This document shows, piece after piece, positions 4,980 to 12,571 of a DNA stretch of 32,000 bases (its first letter is position 1; the number at the start of each line of letters is the position of its first letter). The notes under the pieces were generated by a model. That model did not search any database and was not told where the DNA came from. It saw nothing but the letters and a program-made list of their open reading frames with translations. The stretch is from the NCBI GenBank assembly GCA_016933055.1, contig JAFGBS010000028.1:180001-212000 (forward strand), written 5' to 3'. The translations under genes and the position numbers were made by a program. Source of the stretch: Promethearchaeota archaeon. Its GTDB lineage: Archaea; Asgardarchaeota; Lokiarchaeia; Sigyniarchaeales; Promethearchaeaceae.

Positions 4980-5567
4980 ATGCCGTCAATCATTAATTCT
5001 GACTTTGAATCTCTACCTGAAAGTTATCAAGAATATATTGTGACTATTTATCGTCTTTCATCCAAAACGAAAAAAGTAACAAATATTGATATATCGAATA
5101 AAATGGGAAATGCTCCTTCCTCAGTCTACAATATGTTAAAGAAATTAGCAAGCCGAAAATTGATCCAATGGGAACCCAAACAAAAAGAAATACTTTTGAC
5201 AACTAAGGGAAAACGAATAGCTAAACAGCTTATTTTGAGTCATTTAATCATGGAATTGTTTCTTAGGGAGTATTTGGGATTAATAGATGATGATCAAATT
5301 CATAACCTTGCTTGTAAATTAGAACATCATGTTACTGAACCAATAAAACAAGGATTTCGTAGAAAGATTGGTGAAGAAGCCTATAAAAATTTAGAAGTTA
5401 TTGTTGAAATGGAATCAGACCCTGAAAGTACCATCAAAAGATTAAAAGAAGTATTTCCCAGCCCGAAACAAGTCGTTTCACGATTTGCTCGCAAACTAAA
5501 GAAACTAATGCCGGAATCTGAGGAAAGAATTGAAATAATAAAAACCGAATTCCTTGAAAATCTTTAA
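4980..5567 (+). CDS. DtxR/MntR-family metal-dependent transcriptional regulator
   Basis: QEYIVTIY, HTH region (ISNKMGNAPSSVYNMLKKL), LTTKG, HLIMELFL, ACKLEHHVTE. Confidence 0.9.
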   Translation: MPSIINSDFESLPESYQEYIVTIYRLSSKTKKVTNIDISNKMGNAPSSVYNMLKKLASRKLIQWEPKQKEILLTTKGKRIAKQLILSHLIMELFLREYLGLIDDDQIHNLACKLEHHVTEPIKQGFRRKIGEEAYKNLEVIVEMESDPESTIKRLKEVFPSPKQVVSRFARKLKKLMPESEERIEIIKTEFLENL

Positions 5568-6472
5568 TCTCGTAGAAATTTTCCCATTACAAAATCTTTC
5601 CAGTCCCTTCCAATCATAAAAACTCCTAATAATAACAAAAACAATCCTGTCACTTTATCTAGGTAATTCCAGATGCCCTCTGCGTTAAGAACTAATAAAA
5701 TACCTCCAATTGTAAGTAACATACCAATGAAAGTTTCGTGCAGATGAATTTTTTTAATATAAATTCGTTTGAATCCTGTTGCAGCAAGAGATTTTATGAA
5801 ATCTGGACAGCGAAGTAAAAAATATACCAGAAGAAAGGTGACACTTGCATTTATAATGAAATAGGCTTCATCTGTACTCAAATAATTCGCGTAGTATACA
5901 GAGGAAAATGCAAATGGGGAAATTCTGAAAAACACCCAAAGAATGCTTAGAATTGAAAGAAGTGCTCCAACATTGGCAATTTTTAAAATTATTTTAAATA
6001 CACCCTTTCGTCGATATAAATCTTCCAAGGAGTAAAAACCAGTTTTGGGAACGAACTTTTCAGGGTTATAAACTAAATTTCCTAATTCATCTTTCTCTGA
6101 ATTTACATGTAAGATATCATCATGGATGATTACAATATGAGTCAAATTTTCTTTATCTTTACGTTTTATGATGGAGTTATGCAGAAGCATCGAAAAAAAT
6201 GACGCTAGAAAAACTCCAATAATTATCAGGATAAAAATGACTCTGAATGTGTAATTGTATTTTATAGATAAATAAAATTCATCTAATTTATTATGATCTA
6301 TCCAACTTCCAGGACCGGGTATATAATGTCGCCAATTATCTCCAATACGCAAAATTGCATAAAGATATACTAGGAAAATTGCCGTAAACAACAATGTAAG
6401 ACCAACAGTCATAAATACTCGCGAAACAAATGATTTAGATCGGATCTGTTTATTAGGGATCTGAGTATCCAT
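5564..6472 (-). CDS. Hypothetical multi-pass membrane protein
   Basis: 302-aa ORF with about six hydrophobic segments. It starts 12 bp after the stop of the upstream KaiC-V4R gene. Confidence 0.8.
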   Translation of the reverse strand: MDTQIPNKQIRSKSFVSRVFMTVGLTLLFTAIFLVYLYAILRIGDNWRHYIPGPGSWIDHNKLDEFYLSIKYNYTFRVIFILIIIGVFLASFFSMLLHNSIIKRKDKENLTHIVIIHDDILHVNSEKDELGNLVYNPEKFVPKTGFYSLEDLYRRKGVFKIILKIANVGALLSILSILWVFFRISPFAFSSVYYANYLSTDEAYFIINASVTFLLVYFLLRCPDFIKSLAATGFKRIYIKKIHLHETFIGMLLTIGGILLVLNAEGIWNYLDKVTGLFLLLLGVFMIGRDWKDFVMGKFLRD

Positions 6473-6484
6473 TTAATCCACCAA

Positions 6485-7762
6485 TTAGACTAGTAGCAGC
6501 AAAATATTCAATGTTATAAAACCATTTTGCATATTACCTTGTTTTTTCATTTCGATATGTTTCACGTCGAATTTTAAGCTTTGGGACATAATTCCAGAAT
6601 AAAGTCCCTTCAGAATAGGACGATATATTTCTTCATCCAATTCTTCATGAAACGCATGAGTATACTCGATTATTTTTTGGGAGATGTCTTTTTTAATCAA
6701 TTTACTTTGACCCCATCCGAGTAAAGACCATATTCGTAAAGTAGTTTTAACTACTTCCCACCGATTAATCATATATAGTTTCTGAATAAATGCACTGAGA
6801 TCTGAACCTATTGTGAAGGCTGTTTGTTGAATAATAGTAGCATCTTTAATCTTTTTTAAGAAATGAATCCAGCTTTGGGTAGGAAGTAGTAAAAAGGGAA
6901 TATGAGAAAACTCTAAAGTCCCGTTTTCCCATTCCATTAAATTACGGAAAGCTTCGAATGTATTTAGAAAAGCAGATTTTATGATAACAGAATATTGCTC
7001 CGTTTGTTCATCAAACTGTATTTTATAAGGTTCTACGCGGTTATCGTGGGGATACTGCCCCACCATCTTTAGAACCCGAATATACTGTTGCTGATAAATT
7101 CCCTCAAATTTAGAACTCAAATCCACAACCACATGGCATAGTGATTGAATTTTTGCCAACATTTCAGATGGAACAATATCCTTATTCATTAACATTAGAT
7201 CACAAGACCCCGTATCACAGCATGATGTGAGATTACCTTCAATCAGTTGAATAACGTTAGAAACCGATAAATTAAGAATAAATGGATTTACACTAATTAA
7301 GATATTATATAATTGGATGGAAGGATCATTTTCATCAATGCGTCTTTGGTTTAAATAATCCATTGCTTTCTCTTTTGCATTTCGAATCTGAAGAGACAAT
7401 TCATGCCTATCGGTAAATAAATTTACATTCTGGACTCCCTTACTTACTAAATCAAGTATAATAAGGTTAGGATTTGGATAGACCTCTTGTATCGAAAGTA
7501 TCAAATTTCGCGAAATCATATCTGATAAAATAACCAGCACAACATTAGAAACTGAAATTTGATTTTCGATAATTTCTTTTAAAATTATTTCTCCTCCACT
7601 ACCAATATCTTGTTGAAATAAGGTCAAACTATTGCTTTGGAATCCCCCCCCAAGCATTTCATCCAATTCACGAATACCACTAGAAAAGAATCGCTTTTTC
7701 TCAAGGATTTTTCGTTTTTGAAGGGTCGAATCCGCTAGTTTTTCTTGAACTCGTCTACTCAT
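6485..7762 (-). CDS. Inactivated KaiC/RAD55-like ATPase fused to a V4R-like C-terminal domain
   Basis: SSGIRELDEMLGGGF is the RecA-superfamily KaiC/RAD55 start. Walker A is degenerate (DIGSGGE), and LCHVVVDL and VLKMVG correspond to DGVIEL and KMRG. The C-terminal region has GTLEFSHIPFLLLP, IGSDLS and LLGWGQ, as in V4R-type domains. Confidence 0.75.
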   Translation of the reverse strand: MSRRVQEKLADSTLQKRKILEKKRFFSSGIRELDEMLGGGFQSNSLTLFQQDIGSGGEIILKEIIENQISVSNVVLVILSDMISRNLILSIQEVYPNPNLIILDLVSKGVQNVNLFTDRHELSLQIRNAKEKAMDYLNQRRIDENDPSIQLYNILISVNPFILNLSVSNVIQLIEGNLTSCCDTGSCDLMLMNKDIVPSEMLAKIQSLCHVVVDLSSKFEGIYQQQYIRVLKMVGQYPHDNRVEPYKIQFDEQTEQYSVIIKSAFLNTFEAFRNLMEWENGTLEFSHIPFLLLPTQSWIHFLKKIKDATIIQQTAFTIGSDLSAFIQKLYMINRWEVVKTTLRIWSLLGWGQSKLIKKDISQKIIEYTHAFHEELDEEIYRPILKGLYSGIMSQSLKFDVKHIEMKKQGNMQNGFITLNILLLLV

Positions 7763-8310
7763 GGTATTTGACTTCCTTTTATTTTATTAAGCACATCCAT
7801 GGAAATTTCTTCAAATACTTGGTCCATATTGGTTCCTGTTTTTGCTGAAGTAATATAAAATCGTATGTTTGGATTTTCTGGACGTAATTGTTTTGTAAGA
7901 TCCATGGCAATTACTTCGATGTTAGGATTATAATCAAGATCACATTTGTTACCGATTATCGATATAGGTACGGTCTTTCCCAATACACGAGTAACATCCA
8001 TATACCAATCACGGATATGCAGTAATGAGGATTTGTTGGTTAAGTCGAATAATAGAAGCACACCTTGAGCCCCATTCAAGTAATTAGAGCGTACAGTCGC
8101 CCATAAAGTCTGGCCTCCAATATCCCAAATTGTCATGATTACCTCCTTAGTTTGACCACAAATATCCACACGCATTGTTTTTCCTTTGAAGTCCACACCT
8201 ATTGTTGAAAGATAGTTTTCCTTGAAATATCCTTCTGTATAATGCCGAACCAATGAAGTTTTTCCAACCGAGGGGTCTCCTAAGATACAGACTTTTATTT
8301 TCATAGCCAT
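7759..8310 (-). CDS. Rab/Ras-like small GTPase
   Basis: G1 GDPSVGKTS, G2 STIGVDF, G3 WDIGGQ, G4 NKCD, G5 TSAK. No C-terminal cysteine. The stop overlaps the next start (ATGA). Confidence 0.95.
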   Translation of the reverse strand: MAMKIKVCILGDPSVGKTSLVRHYTEGYFKENYLSTIGVDFKGKTMRVDICGQTKEVIMTIWDIGGQTLWATVRSNYLNGAQGVLLLFDLTNKSSLLHIRDWYMDVTRVLGKTVPISIIGNKCDLDYNPNIEVIAMDLTKQLRPENPNIRFYITSAKTGTNMDQVFEEISMDVLNKIKGSQIP

Positions 8311-8520: not shown

Positions 8521-9213
8521 ATGCCAAAAAACGCGAAAGCTCAAGAGAAATTGGAAAACATAATTATTTCTTTACGGGACGGTCTTAGTGAATTCGCTTC
8601 TCTAATAGAAGATATAAATAAATCCAGTTCTATGTTGCTGAAATTGTTCAGTAAAACCGAAAAAGAACTCAAAAGCATAAAATTGGACCGAGGGACCCAT
8701 GCTGTAACATCAACAGCAACACCAGCTGCACCTATTGTTGGAATTAAATCTGGACAAGATGCTCGCGAAAAAGCCGCTAATTTATTGTTTAACATGCTAT
8801 CAGGAGGAACAAGTGGAGCAGAATCACCGGCAACTTCAACGGTTTCTGCACATCCTTCAAGCCCCCCCTTAAGATCGGGGCCTCCTAGCTCATCATCGGG
8901 TCCTCCGGGTAGACCCCCCTCAGCACCCCCAAGTGCTCCTGCAAAATCTCCTTCTGGATTACCCCCTCCTCCAAAATTACCTCCTAAAGCTCCAGGGATA
9001 CCAACACCGGGTGTATCAACTCAGCCTTCATTTATGAAAGCTCCTCCTGGAATGAGTCCACCTCCCTCAAAACCTGGAGCACCTATGACCGCAGGATCTC
9101 CTCCCGCAGCTCCAGTAGCAGCTGGAGGTGGAGGTGGAGCTGGATTATCCTCTTTACGAGATGAAATGTTAAAAGAATTAGATCGTCTTAAGAAAATCAT
9201 GAAAGGCGGCTAA
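8521..9213 (+). CDS. Coiled-coil / proline-rich protein with a C-terminal amphipathic helix (WH2-, VASP- or MIM1-like)
   Basis: N-terminal heptad-like helix, a long Pro/Ser/Ala/Gly linker (LPPPP and multiple PxxP), a Gly5 hinge, then LSSLRDEMLKELDRLKKIMKGG. Confidence 0.8.
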   Translation: MPKNAKAQEKLENIIISLRDGLSEFASLIEDINKSSSMLLKLFSKTEKELKSIKLDRGTHAVTSTATPAAPIVGIKSGQDAREKAANLLFNMLSGGTSGAESPATSTVSAHPSSPPLRSGPPSSSSGPPGRPPSAPPSAPAKSPSGLPPPPKLPPKAPGIPTPGVSTQPSFMKAPPGMSPPPSKPGAPMTAGSPPAAPVAAGGGGGAGLSSLRDEMLKELDRLKKIMKGG

Positions 9214-9446: not shown

Positions 9447-10064
9447 ATGGTAGAATTCGAAAATGAGGAATTCATATTTCGTATGATTTTAATTGGCATC
9501 TATTCGATTTTTACCATAATAAGAATTCGATATAGACGAATCGCGAAAAACAACGGTGTTATTAAGGAAAAAGATAATGCTACCCAAAAATTGCTGTTTG
9601 CCATGATGGCTTATGAGGTTTTGACTTTTATTGCTTTTGTGTTTTTGTACAATTGGATTCCATGGGAAATAGCTCATATTCCCTTTCCTTTATGGCTCAG
9701 ATGGATGGGATTACCATTAGGTCTAGGCGCTATCGTGTATTTTATCATAGTCCATGAAGCTTTGGGAAAGAATTTCTCTCCTAAGCTGCGTATCAAAAAG
9801 GAACAAACACTCATTACTCATGGTCCTTACAAACACATACGTCATCCAATGTATGTAGCGTTTTTTCTCCTTCATCTAGCAGTATTTTTCATCGTAGCGA
9901 ATTGGATCATTGGGATTTCATGGAATATTTTTTTGTTCACAATTATTGCTATTCGTGTAAAACCTGAAGAAAAACTAATGATCGAGCGTTTTGGTAAGGA
10001 ATATGAAGAATACATAGAAAGAACAAGAAGATTTTTACCCATAAAGAAGAAAACAAGAATCTGA
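9447..10064 (+). CDS. Isoprenylcysteine carboxylmethyltransferase (ICMT/Ste14/PEMT)-family membrane methyltransferase
   Basis: Five or six transmembrane segments, LITHGPYKHIRHPMY, EEKLMIERFGKEYEEY, RRFLP. Confidence 0.9.
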   Translation: MVEFENEEFIFRMILIGIYSIFTIIRIRYRRIAKNNGVIKEKDNATQKLLFAMMAYEVLTFIAFVFLYNWIPWEIAHIPFPLWLRWMGLPLGLGAIVYFIIVHEALGKNFSPKLRIKKEQTLITHGPYKHIRHPMYVAFFLLHLAVFFIVANWIIGISWNIFLFTIIAIRVKPEEKLMIERFGKEYEEYIERTRRFLPIKKKTRI

Positions 10065-10085: not shown

Positions 10086-12176
10086 TTAGAATTCATCAGG
10101 TATAGGAATGCTCTCTATGAGAGACTTATCAATTTGTAACATGTTTCCTTTATTTTTAGCATAGTAATTAATCCATTTAGCCACTTCAGAAGATTCTAAA
10201 TACTCATGTAAAGCTCTTAAATCAATTTTGTATTTTGGTTGTAAAATATTACATGATAAATCCGTGACAAATGGTTTCTCCGTATATATGAAACGTGGTT
10301 TAATTGTCCGTCGAATAATCAAAATTCTTGCATGAGTGAATAATTCTTTTTGACGCGGCCAATGTAACTCAAACCAGTGCCTTTTTCCTATTTTAGTTTC
10401 CCTACGTTGTTCCATAATAGATTTGAAAGGCTTTAAATGTCGAATCAAATTTGGATACAAAGATTCTTGGAATGCGATATTGTTCATGTAAATTATATAA
10501 TTTTTTACAGGAAGGGGATCAAAATTGAGATATTTGCTTTGGTGCAAGTCACGGACATAAAAAAACGGTAATATGCATTCCCGTTCTTTTTCAGTTAACT
10601 CAATTTGATTTAAGAAGTCTTTCGATACAATAAAAACCCCATTATTTATTGAGATATCTGAATTCGAACGTAATTTCTTATGTTTTTTTCGAATACGGTC
10701 GGGCCCTGCAATTACGCCTTGTCGCACTATTGAGATATCCCCCAACGTACGTTTGTAAAATTTTAAATTTTTGAAATCTGGTTCTGGGCGAAATTTAATC
10801 ATATAATCATGTTCTTGGAGAAATACATTGGAATAGCTAATTATATCCGTTCTGTTTGATGGGATATTATGATAAATTAGTTCCTTCTTAGTAAAGTCCT
10901 TGATGGAGCCCATAGTTATTGTAAAAATACAGCTATGAAATCCTGGGGCTTTATGAAATAAAGATTGATTTTCAAAATCATAAAATTCCATGCGATTTGA
11001 GTATGTTTTAATATATTTTCGTATAAAGATGGCACTTTTCGTATGTAAAAAATAGTTGGGTGTGATAAAACATAGTATTCCGCTAGGTTTTATATGTTCG
11101 AAAGCAAATCCAAGAAAATGAAGATAATAATCTAACCGTGGCTTGTAAAATATCGAATTTTTCTCAGGTATCATTTGATCGAAGTAATGTTTATTTGATT
11201 TTTCCGATAAATAAGGGGGATTAGAGATGATTATATCAAATTTTTCGGTTAGAAGGGATTTTAAGGTAAAGGAATTTCCTATTTCGCATTTGTTGGTCAG
11301 CATTCGAACAAATTTTTGGAGTTGATTTGAATTTGGATTACTTTTAAGAAACCAAAGAAGCACTCGAATACGAAGAATGTAAGTTGCTAAAGGATCTGTA
11401 TCTACAGTTCTCAAGTTTTTTTTAACAATATTATACTTTAAATTAATGGGAGGGCGATTAGAATCATTCTTTTTAAAATACTCAAATAACATCTCACAGA
11501 AATTGCTGGTAAATACTCCCGTTCCCGCACATAAATCCAAAACTGTTGAATTAGCAGAGATAGATTTTTGTTCCACAGCTCTTTCAACCATAAATCGCGC
11601 AATATCATTTGGAGTAGAATATTTTCCAAACAAATGAGAATGAGTTGTCTGCAAATTTCTTTTTACATATTTTTGAAATTGCGAGAAAGTATTACATTTA
11701 TTAAATGCTTCAGATACAGATGTTTTTGGTAATATTAGGAGGTAATTTAAGAGTTCATCAAACAAGAACGAAAAAAATTGGGAAAAATCTCTCTCTATAA
11801 AACTTCCGTCGACTCTCTCACATTGGTTATTTTTCATTTCAAATAAAGAAGTGGAAAAAATCTTATTGTTCCTAATAGTATTACAATTTACCTTAAAGGG
11901 TGTAAATATGGATTGTAGCAGTTCAATATTTATATCCATGTTACTAACGTAGGATTGAAAAAAAATGTTCAATATTTTAATAGATGAAAGGACTGATTTT
12001 ATAGAAATATCAGGATTGACTATTTTATACATCTGAAATAGGTCATTAAACTTGTCAATTTCGTTTTTGATATCAATTTGAGAATATAAAGAACTTATTA
12101 AATTCCACTGATTTGAGATGATTTTTTCAAATAGTGAAGTATTTTGAGTTTTAAAGTCGAGTTTTTGGATGGGCAT
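10086..12176 (-). CDS. N6-adenine DNA methyltransferase (Eco57I/TaqI-like, with C-terminal specificity domain)
   Basis: Motif X GKYSTP, motif I VLDLCAGTG, motif IV IISNPPY, DYYLHF, FITPNYFL, and TaqI-C-like WFELHWPR. Confidence 0.9.
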   Translation of the reverse strand: MPIQKLDFKTQNTSLFEKIISNQWNLISSLYSQIDIKNEIDKFNDLFQMYKIVNPDISIKSVLSSIKILNIFFQSYVSNMDINIELLQSIFTPFKVNCNTIRNNKIFSTSLFEMKNNQCERVDGSFIERDFSQFFSFLFDELLNYLLILPKTSVSEAFNKCNTFSQFQKYVKRNLQTTHSHLFGKYSTPNDIARFMVERAVEQKSISANSTVLDLCAGTGVFTSNFCEMLFEYFKKNDSNRPPINLKYNIVKKNLRTVDTDPLATYILRIRVLLWFLKSNPNSNQLQKFVRMLTNKCEIGNSFTLKSLLTEKFDIIISNPPYLSEKSNKHYFDQMIPEKNSIFYKPRLDYYLHFLGFAFEHIKPSGILCFITPNYFLHTKSAIFIRKYIKTYSNRMEFYDFENQSLFHKAPGFHSCIFTITMGSIKDFTKKELIYHNIPSNRTDIISYSNVFLQEHDYMIKFRPEPDFKNLKFYKRTLGDISIVRQGVIAGPDRIRKKHKKLRSNSDISINNGVFIVSKDFLNQIELTEKERECILPFFYVRDLHQSKYLNFDPLPVKNYIIYMNNIAFQESLYPNLIRHLKPFKSIMEQRRETKIGKRHWFELHWPRQKELFTHARILIIRRTIKPRFIYTEKPFVTDLSCNILQPKYKIDLRALHEYLESSEVAKWINYYAKNKGNMLQIDKSLIESIPIPDEF

Positions 12177-12304
12177 AGGATCAATAGCAATAATTTAATA
12201 AGATTAGATTAGCAATAGATAATTGATAATTAGTGGTTTGAATAAGGTTTAAAATTATTCTACCCTACTAAAAAACATAATAAAAAAACGAGTTGCTGAA
12301 AAAA

Positions 12305-12571
12305 ATGGCCAAGAAAGAATTGTTCATCAAAAGAGTGTATGAAATCGTTAATGAACTTAAGATTCCCTTAATTGACGAACGCGTTTATCATAAAGTCGAC
12401 CTTAATGAAGCGAGAGTAACCACCAACGTAAGTTTCCGATTCGAAGAGGATGAAAGTGTTATTCGAGGATTCCTCGGTCTGGCAGAATATTTCCATACTG
12501 TAGTTATCAAGCGAAAAGAACGGTTTTACATCCCTAATGGTGCAACCCTATTCAAATTAGAGAGCTCCTAA
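12305..12571 (+). CDS. Small hypothetical protein (88 aa)
   Basis: MAKKELFIKRVYEIV...GFLGLAEYFHTVVIK. Globular composition. ATG at 12305 is preferred over TTG at 12293. Confidence 0.7.
   Translation: MAKKELFIKRVYEIVNELKIPLIDERVYHKVDLNEARVTTNVSFRFEEDESVIRGFLGLAEYFHTVVIKRKERFYIPNGATLFKLESS

Follow-up and report, generated by a model that had tools for sequence, protein, structure and literature searches.

A near-universal Asgard protein family that carries a conserved C-terminal helix behind a proline-rich arm

A proline-rich gene in a Promethearchaeota contig

We analysed a 32,000-nucleotide stretch of a Promethearchaeota archaeon genome (assembly GCA_016933055.1, contig JAFGBS010000028.1, positions 180,001 to 212,000; hereafter the window), with attention to the gene at positions 8521-9213 of its forward strand. 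This open reading frame (ORF) encodes 230 amino acids, and we refer to its product as the proline-arm protein. A preliminary description of the DNA had considered only positions 8860-9213, which correspond to residues 114-230 and the stop codon, and had listed a proline-rich stretch, SPPPSKP, a run of five glycines and a terminal helix. All of these are present in the translation of the ORF, as GLPPPPKLPPKAP, SPPPSKP, GGGGG (residues 203-207) and the terminal LSSLRDEMLKELDRLKKIMKGG. The helix that closes the protein (termed the end helix) reads LSSLRDEMLKELDRLKKIM.

Residues 114-200 contain 32 prolines in 87 positions (37%), compared with a mean of 4.0% in the genome's ORFs of at least 200 amino acids, and only two other ORFs of the genome reach 25 or more prolines per 87 residues. 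The GC content at 8860-9120 is 0.56, against approximately 0.33 for the window and the genome. The 230-amino-acid protein has no match in Pfam or NCBIfam. A word-indexed search returned 78 homologues of 210-270 amino acids, all named ones coming from Promethearchaeota/Lokiarchaeia-type assemblies, and six-frame searches located a single copy in 37 of 41 related genomes. The ORF is a true gene, and its proline-rich composition combined with its conserved elements is far beyond chance.

In an alignment of 27 members, which share 36-80% identity overall, conservation is seen in the helix at the N-terminus, in a short AAxxLFxxLSG helix, in the motifs LPPAPKLPP and PSFAKRP, and in the C-terminal GGLSSLRDEMLxELNRLKKIMRGE, the last being kept almost letter for letter. 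Residues L147-P155 and 208-229 are invariant or nearly so. AlphaFold2, run on the family alignment, predicted three isolated helices (residues 5-52, 78-93 and 209-227) with the remainder disordered and no compact fold (pTM 0.23). The gene can be divided on this basis into the following features, all on the + strand:

8521-9213, +: the whole gene, with a head that is probably a coiled coil, a proline arm and a putative docking helix (ORF, translation and homologues)
8533-8676, +: residues 5-52, one long helix whose sequence follows an a/d heptad (AlphaFold2 pLDDT >90; heptad read from the sequence)
8752-8799, +: residues 78-93, the short amphipathic helix AAxLLFxxLSG (conservation and AlphaFold2 helix)
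8806-9141, +: residues 96-207, a disordered Pro/Ser/Gly/Ala arm with GPP(S/K)AP-type repeats and a Gly5 end (composition and model)
8959-8985, +: residues 147-155, LPPPPKLPP, a fixed arm motif (family consensus LPPAPKLPP; conservation)
9025-9045, +: residues 169-175, PSFMKAP, a second fixed arm motif (consensus PSFAKRP; F171 and P175 at least 90% conserved)
9145-9201, +: residues 209-227, the end helix, a candidate docking helix and the defining element of the family (AlphaFold2 helix, pLDDT approximately 90, and conservation)

The modelled helix at residues 5-52 is probably an oligomerising coiled coil; its matches to coiled-coil families, when the 27 members were searched against Pfam, were weak and non-significant. 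Within the short helix that follows, residues A85, A86, L89 and L93 never vary, and F90 and S94 are almost as constant. The arm consists of 112 residues, among them 34 Pro, 20 Ser, 16 Gly and 15 Ala, and is modelled at a pLDDT of 40-60. Its length and number of repeats differ among homologues.

The LPPPPKLPP motif of the arm is strongly conserved in the 27-member alignment (P149 and P154 invariant; L147, P148, P151, K152, L153 and P155 at 90% or above). The pattern P.PK[LM]PP is present in only two of the 10,419 ORFs of the genome, namely the proline-arm protein and a proline-rich vWA protein, and the variants PPIPPKVPP and PPLPPKLPS occur in the arms of two families of the phylum-wide survey described below (f25 and f30). 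The rarity of this sequence in the genome, coupled with its reappearance in variant form in those arms, suggests that a dedicated proline-recognition partner exists.

The second carrier of the pattern in this genome (G000) is a 764-amino-acid protein encoded at C16:174836-177130 (L085:4837-7131, + strand). It has an N-terminal barrel-like domain, a 150-amino-acid Pro/Gln-rich region that includes MPPPPKLPP, and a C-terminal vWA domain. A Roadblock/LC7 gene is the divergent neighbour of the gene for this protein.

Conservation of the end helix

The end helix conforms to a 19-residue consensus (hydrophobic-x-x-L-R-x-E-M-L-x-E-L-x-R-L-K-x-hydrophobic-M) that is near-invariant both in the 27 homologues and in 17 sequences drawn from 12 families. 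Column entropies calculated from 25 distinct sequences of 12 families are zero at L212, M216 and E219, and fall below 1 bit at R213, E215, L217, L220, R222, L223 and K224. High entropy is confined to the heptad's b and f positions (214, 218, 221 and 225), and entropy is near zero at the a, c, d, e and g positions. Because only the b and f positions vary, approximately three quarters of the helix surface is under selection. Such a pattern is more in keeping with a peptide that a groove or helical bundle surrounds than with either an ordinary coiled coil or a one-sided amphipathic helix.

Between Loki-type and Odin-type proteins, 14 of the 19 residues are kept, which is about the same degree of conservation as that of Lokiactin (75%). 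When all ORFs of the genome were scanned with a hidden Markov model (HMM) of the motif, the proline-arm gene was the only significant match, with 41 bits as opposed to 7 bits for the next best ORF.

Distribution of the family and its alternative heads

To define the range of the family we used a survey of 251 Asgard genomes sampled across the phylum, 89 of which are of high quality. A full-length profile matched 116 of the 251, often over the arm and the tail only. A profile of 31 columns that represents the end helix alone matched 213 of the 251 genomes and 83 of the 89 high-quality genomes, mostly with one copy in each. The protein encoded in the window matches this tail profile with an E value of 2e-14, the match being C-terminal and behind the proline-rich arm. 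Conservation of the terminal motif, the absence of which would have refuted the preliminary description by its own criterion, is thus much stronger than expected, both in the 27 homologues and across the phylum.

In the loci that were read, the end helix always resides at the extreme C-terminus behind a proline-rich arm, and this unit is joined to differing heads. Loki-type proteins, Odin-type proteins (from 1.4-Mb genomes) and families f15, f22 and f24 have a soluble coiled-coil head. In families f8, f10, f16, f18, f19 and f30 the head consists of a single transmembrane segment at the N-terminus with a helical domain behind it, and that of family f25 is a multi-pass membrane domain of approximately 350 residues. 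The arm and end helix of the membrane forms are predicted to face the cytoplasm (N-out/C-in), because basic residues follow the transmembrane segment in the sequences. The family therefore has a near-universal Asgard architecture composed of a head, a proline arm and an end helix, and no description of it is present in the literature that was searched.

When 1.84 billion representatives were searched exhaustively with the profile, two to three tandem copies of the end helix also came to light in other Asgard proteins. In three Sigyn-type metagenomic proteins (P0133, P0117 and P0120), two to three tandem end helices precede a CPxCG...CCxC zinc ribbon and a longin-like domain. One member of this small, three-copy zinc-ribbon/longin-like family is labelled Sigynarchaeota. 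In another protein (P0115), a Ras-family domain precedes two copies of the end helix and the ribbon. No end helix joined to gelsolin domains was seen in the 20 longer hits that were scanned or in the genome of the window.

Several further features were seen among these proteins and their loci. Five membrane forms (L033, L037, L039, L044 and L046) carry a helical block, G-x-I-[ST]-x-x-x-F-x-x-L-x-x-x-Y, between the transmembrane segment and the arm, and by eye this block may resemble SHOCT-type oligomerisation motifs. The loci of the membrane forms share only neighbours that look like housekeeping genes, read by eye as ribose-5-phosphate isomerase, a PIN/KH ATPase and a tRNA endonuclease. In a metagenomic protein of 549 amino acids (P0084), a complete proline-arm protein has a transmembrane segment in front of it and a C-terminal TIR domain (Pfam TIR_2, E 6e-18) behind its end helix. 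This arrangement could be a real fusion or an artefact of gene calling.

Gene neighbourhood and an 88-amino-acid partner candidate

The genes that surround the proline-arm gene in the window are as follows:

5564-8310, -: a divergent three-gene operon encoding a Ras-like GTPase, a 425-amino-acid KaiC/FlaH-like protein and a 302-amino-acid membrane protein
9447-10064, +: an ICMT/PEMT-like membrane methyltransferase gene, between the proline-arm gene and c5
10086-12176, -: an Eco57I/TaqI-like N6-adenine methylase gene, also between the proline-arm gene and c5
12293-12571, +: c5, a protein of approximately 88 amino acids with a likely start at 12305, whose gene is kept near that of the coiled-coil form (identified in the window by homology)

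The KaiC/FlaH-like protein is without clear Walker motifs in its Pfam match. A longer Eco57I-like gene abuts the proline-arm gene in complete genomes of the window's family.

Homologues of c5 are 88-98 amino acids long. In the window c5 lies 3.1 kb from the proline-arm gene, from which it is separated by the two inserted genes (ICMT-like and Eco57I-like). Counted from coordinates, the two genes are less than 1 kb apart in 63 of 70 pairs that share a contig, in families f3, f5, f6, f15, f22 and f24. Their relative orientation is divergent in f3 and convergent elsewhere, and we argue for a functional link because proximity persists while orientation changes. Homologues of c5 were found only in lineages with the coiled-coil form, and in none of 59 genomes from families f8, f16, f18, f19, f25 and f30, which carry the membrane forms.

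The short helix AAxLLFxxLSG of the proline-arm protein is confined to the soluble coiled-coil forms, and an analogous D/E-x-L-[FW]-x-x-L is present in the forms of the Odin type, f15, f22 and f24. Since c5 tracks the head and not the tail, we infer that it may work with the coiled-coil head or with the AAxxLFxxLSG helix, in place of a membrane anchor; the helix at residues 78-93 is accordingly a candidate contact for c5.

The structure of c5 was modelled with confidence (pLDDT 89, pTM 0.81) and has the order alpha-beta-beta-alpha-beta-beta-beta. The protein has no Pfam match, its best Foldseek hit in the PDB had an E value of 0.13 and its best VIA hit a Z score of 4.0. An atlas comparison gave a TM score of 0.66, to a DUF5305 segment only, and no fold was assigned. 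In several f3 genomes the c5 profile match crosses one in-frame stop near the N-terminus, which could reflect a mis-set start or read-through.

A probable tether with a docking helix

From the architecture, conservation and distribution of the family we consider it very likely that the protein acts as a modular tether, whose end helix is offered as a docking peptide to a conserved partner in the cytosol. In such a mechanism, the head would fix the tether in place, by means of an oligomerising coiled coil in the window protein and of a membrane anchor and helical domain in other Asgard classes. The coiled-coil head would work, probably, with the co-inherited 88-amino-acid protein encoded at 12293-12571. 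The proline arm, of approximately 110 residues, would serve as a flexible spacer carrying LPPxPKLPP and PSFAKRP, and the 19-residue amphipathic end helix would be the docking peptide, with about three quarters of its circumference buried by the partner.

This proposal retains part of what was first suggested for the locus. The feature is real and conserved, and the general idea of a eukaryote-style adaptor, in which a disordered proline linker would present a conserved terminal peptide, holds at the level of sequence. The two specific assignments offered with it, a WH2/VASP-like actin regulator and a MIM1-type ESCRT adaptor, are not supported, for reasons that are given below.

Candidate partners of the end helix

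We rank the potential partners in the order actin-family groove, MIT domain of Vps4, self-zippering and GTPase/longin machinery, with something else placed last. That the helix docks in the groove of an actin-family protein, either Lokiactin or an actin-related paralogue, is a possibility that we advance tentatively and by analogy. It is ranked first because of the gene neighbourhood in family f3, the precedent of arcadin-2 and ParR, a degree of conservation like that of Lokiactin and the need for links between membranes and actin. The end helix would occupy a hydrophobic groove of the actin fold as do arcadin-2, ParR and the WH2/C helices of eukaryotic nucleation factors, an analogy that entails no WH2 homology, and the family would link a hub or a membrane to the actin cytoskeleton.

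Coordinates from the sister family f3 place the proline-arm gene 135-2001 bp upstream of an actin-related gene, on the same strand, in 31 of the 33 genomes in which both are present. As a rule a PIG-L deacetylase gene separates the two, although they are directly adjacent in seven genomes. The neighbour is an actin-related-type paralogue (E approximately 1e-88 to eukaryotic actins) and not Lokiactin (1e-160), which agrees with the actin-related proteins reported from L. ossiferum (PMC9834061).

A typical f3 run, all on one strand, comprises the proline-arm gene, a PIG-L-type deacetylase, a 371-amino-acid actin-related paralogue and a 121-amino-acid protein (L013:7838-10313), and the same layout is seen in L010-L017 and L021-L023. 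The pair formed by the PIG-L and actin-related genes is also kept in the genome of the window (C2:258-262 kb), where the actin-related gene occupies C2:259697-260797. The 121-amino-acid protein was considered as a profilin and rejected, as it has no PDB or Pfam match and its atlas features are near winged-helix (ArsR-type) regulators.

Several observations weigh against an actin-family partner. The neighbourhood link to an actin-related gene is specific to a lineage: within the family to which the window belongs, 44-270 kb separate the proline-arm and actin-related genes, and among 20 loci examined in other classes none has an actin gene within 7 kb. In family f4, the Odin-type genome and f22 the proline-arm protein is accompanied by Lokiactin only and by no actin-related paralogue, so that the paralogue cannot be an obligatory partner. 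The only phylum-wide neighbour of the proline-arm gene is c5. No match to WH2 (PF02205) was obtained for the window protein at E<=0.1 or for the 27 members at E<=10. Finally, Loki and Odin profilins are reported, in work cited in PMC8410842, to show no binding to VASP polyproline, which makes it less likely that the arm recruits profilin.

Other results touch on actin. In the published co-immunoprecipitation of L. ossiferum Lokiactin (bioRxiv 10.1101/2025.11.30.690169), no protein of 27-29 kDa at tags ~00590-00625 is among the rows listed, which have a log2 ratio of at least 1.7; this tag range for the homologue is approximate, being placed from gelsolin and inositol-phosphate-synthase landmarks. 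The arcadin-2 structure (5LY3) was not matched at E<=10 when PDB chains were searched with the end-helix profile. One genome with the motif and no actin (G235) was considered as a counter-case. ESCRT-III is missing from it as well, and since the assembly covers only part of a larger genome, it is uninformative.

The second candidate derives from the proposal of a MIM1-type ESCRT adaptor. The MIM1 consensus is (D/E)xxLxxRLxxL(K/R); it binds the groove between helices 2 and 3 of the Vps4 MIT domain, and its position 7 is a key Arg in eukaryotes. The end helix could be an Asgard-type mimic of this motif which, by docking into an MIT domain (that of Vps4 or of another MIT protein), recruits or regulates the ESCRT ATPase at a hub or at the membrane. 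The hydrophobic spacing on which the proposal was founded is present: in the MIM1 register M216, L220 and L223 followed by K224 fit the consensus. Position 7 is occupied by an invariant Glu and position 1 by an Arg. The genome's own two ESCRT-III proteins have the C-terminal sequences IKKEIEKLKK and LEKEIKRLKE, in which position 7 is Glu and positions 10-12 are R/K-L-K, as in EMLKELDRLKK, and the latter tail (ISELEKEIQRLKE) is kept in 22 Loki-type ESCRT-III proteins. Such tails have been called MIM1-like (PMC7240154), and the end helix, like MIMs, lies at the extreme C-terminus behind a flexible linker.

Several results speak against this reading, and the protein is not a recognisable ESCRT-III relative. 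With the motif HMM the ESCRT-III tail scores a non-significant 3.6 bits (rank 15 of 10,419 ORFs), no Snf7/ESCRT-III core is matched in the window protein or the 27 members (E<=10), the modelled head is a single helix, and the end helix is one turn longer than the ESCRT-III tails. Moreover, none of 36 loci has an ESCRT or Vps4 gene within 7 kb, and Vps4 MIT domains are only 31-41% identical within an order in which the end helix is invariant. A complex prediction for Vps4 MIT with residues 196-230 scored 0.01 against a mark of 0.32, which gives no answer and is counted neither way. We regard docking to an MIT domain as rather unlikely.

The conservation of the end helix could also be explained by a short parallel coiled-coil zipper, which would pair with itself or across carriers (membrane forms and GTPase/longin proteins) and thereby cross-link them. 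The hydrophobic residues follow an a/d/e/g heptad pattern, E219 and K224 would form a g-to-e' pair as in GCN4, and the only PDB chains found with the end-helix profile, in a search of all of them, were GCN4-type zipper ends (EVARLKKL), the best with a non-significant E of 0.17. The two to three tandem copies per chain in Sigyn-type proteins and the coiled-coil character of the head itself point in the same direction. Nevertheless, 19 residues are short for a stable zipper, and the invariant c-position residues E215 and R222 are unusual in a plain coiled coil. Most genomes, including this one, have a single carrier, so hetero-pairing would not be a general role, and AlphaFold2 left the end helix unpacked against the head (pTM 0.23). 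A zipper is thus an unlikely account of the family.

A further proposal is that the end helix docks onto trafficking-type machinery built of small GTPases and longin or roadblock domains, which would make the protein an effector or scaffold of the adjoining Rab-like GTPase operon. In the window the proline-arm gene diverges from the Ras-family GTPase operon. The end helix follows a Ras domain in P0115 and precedes the zinc ribbon and longin-like domain in the P0133 family, and the genome's only other PPPPKLPP protein adjoins a Roadblock gene. A coupling of this operon to the proline-arm gene was rejected, however, as the synteny is kept only within the same genus (1 of 16 related loci) and the remaining 35 of the 36 loci examined have no GTPase gene within 7 kb. 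We consider this machinery an improbable partner.

Descent from eukaryotic actin regulators concerns the origin of the protein and is by far the weakest of the explanations. A WH2 motif consists of an amphipathic helix, a short linker and an extended LKK[TV], and binds the cleft of monomeric actin between subdomains 1 and 3. The LKKI of the window protein (L223-K224-K225-I226) lies inside the continuous helix 209-227 of the AlphaFold2 model and not in an extended segment after it, and within the family position 225 varies among K, E, A and T and position 226 among I, L, F and Y. WH2 membership is not supported on these grounds. Nor is membership in Ena/VASP, as none of the 27 members matches EVH1/WH1 or VASP_tetra and the coiled coil is N-terminal rather than C-terminal; WASP was not matched either (E<=10). 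Although the order of elements is similar (an oligomerising helix, polyproline and a basic amphipathic helix that ends in LKK-hydrophobic), true homology to WH2, WASP or VASP proteins is highly improbable given that 0 of 27 members match in Pfam at E<=10, that there is no PDB match, that LKKI is intrahelical and that EVH1 domain and acidic tail are both missing. In the papers that were searched, WH2-like motifs of Asgard archaea are described only within gelsolins (PMC9433394; bioRxiv 10.1101/2025.11.30.690169), and polyproline motifs are mentioned in general terms only (PMC8410842).

Implications

In its most specific form, our preferred reading would make the family the missing Asgard link from a membrane or scaffold to actin: a near-universal, single-copy tether that would use its invariant end helix to hold the barbed-end groove of Lokiactin or actin-related proteins, with fixed ligands along its proline arm. 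This full version is doubtful, but its consequences are considerable. If it were true, the family would be a pre-eukaryotic functional counterpart of the WASP/VASP/ActA-type factors that combine polyproline with an actin-binding helix, and would have arisen independently of WH2. The 88-amino-acid partner would then be the localiser in lineages that lost the membrane anchor. The Asgard actin regulators named in published work are profilins and gelsolins only (PMC13716822, PMC9433394). The family bears on the manner in which filaments attach to the membrane in wall-less, protrusion-forming Asgard cells.

The value of the family does not depend on the identity of the partner. It is present in approximately 85% of the sampled Asgard genomes, usually in one copy, and could be used as bait for a central Asgard interaction, be it with actin, Vps4 or trafficking GTPases.

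Comparison with known systems

The modules of WASP/WAVE/WIP proteins (with their WH2/C helices) and of Ena/VASP proteins share with the family the succession of a head that oligomerises or localises, a polyproline region and a basic amphipathic helix with L-K-K-hydrophobic at its end. The tandem copies of the end helix in some carriers are reminiscent of multi-WH2 nucleators. Unlike WASP and VASP, the proline-arm family has no HMM similarity to these proteins, no EVH1 domain and no acidic tail or Trp. Its LKK is inside the helix, and its end helix has a Glu/Arg pattern that is conserved on three sides.

The MIM1 tails of ESCRT-III proteins (CHMP1-3/Vps2) are comparable in a different respect, as they too are extreme C-terminal amphipathic helices behind a flexible linker with i/i+4/i+7 spacing followed by K/R. 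The family differs from them by the absence of an ESCRT-III core and gene context, by the Glu in place of the key Arg and by a helix that is one turn longer.

Arcadin-2 of Pyrobaculum (PDB 5LY3; PMC5173319) offers the third comparison. It has a Trp-containing peptide and no proline arm, and the actin neighbourhood of our family is limited to one family. In other respects the two are alike, since arcadin-2 is also a small archaeal protein (approximately 200 amino acids) with a functional C-terminal helix behind a linker, and its gene adjoins an actin-family gene (crenactin) as the proline-arm gene does in f3. The C-terminal helices of arcadin-2 on crenactin and of ParR on ParM are precedents for docking in the groove of an actin fold (PMC5173319). 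The arcadin-2 helix binds the hydrophobic groove of this fold (PMC5173319), and by analogy the end helix of the proline-arm family may dock in the same place.

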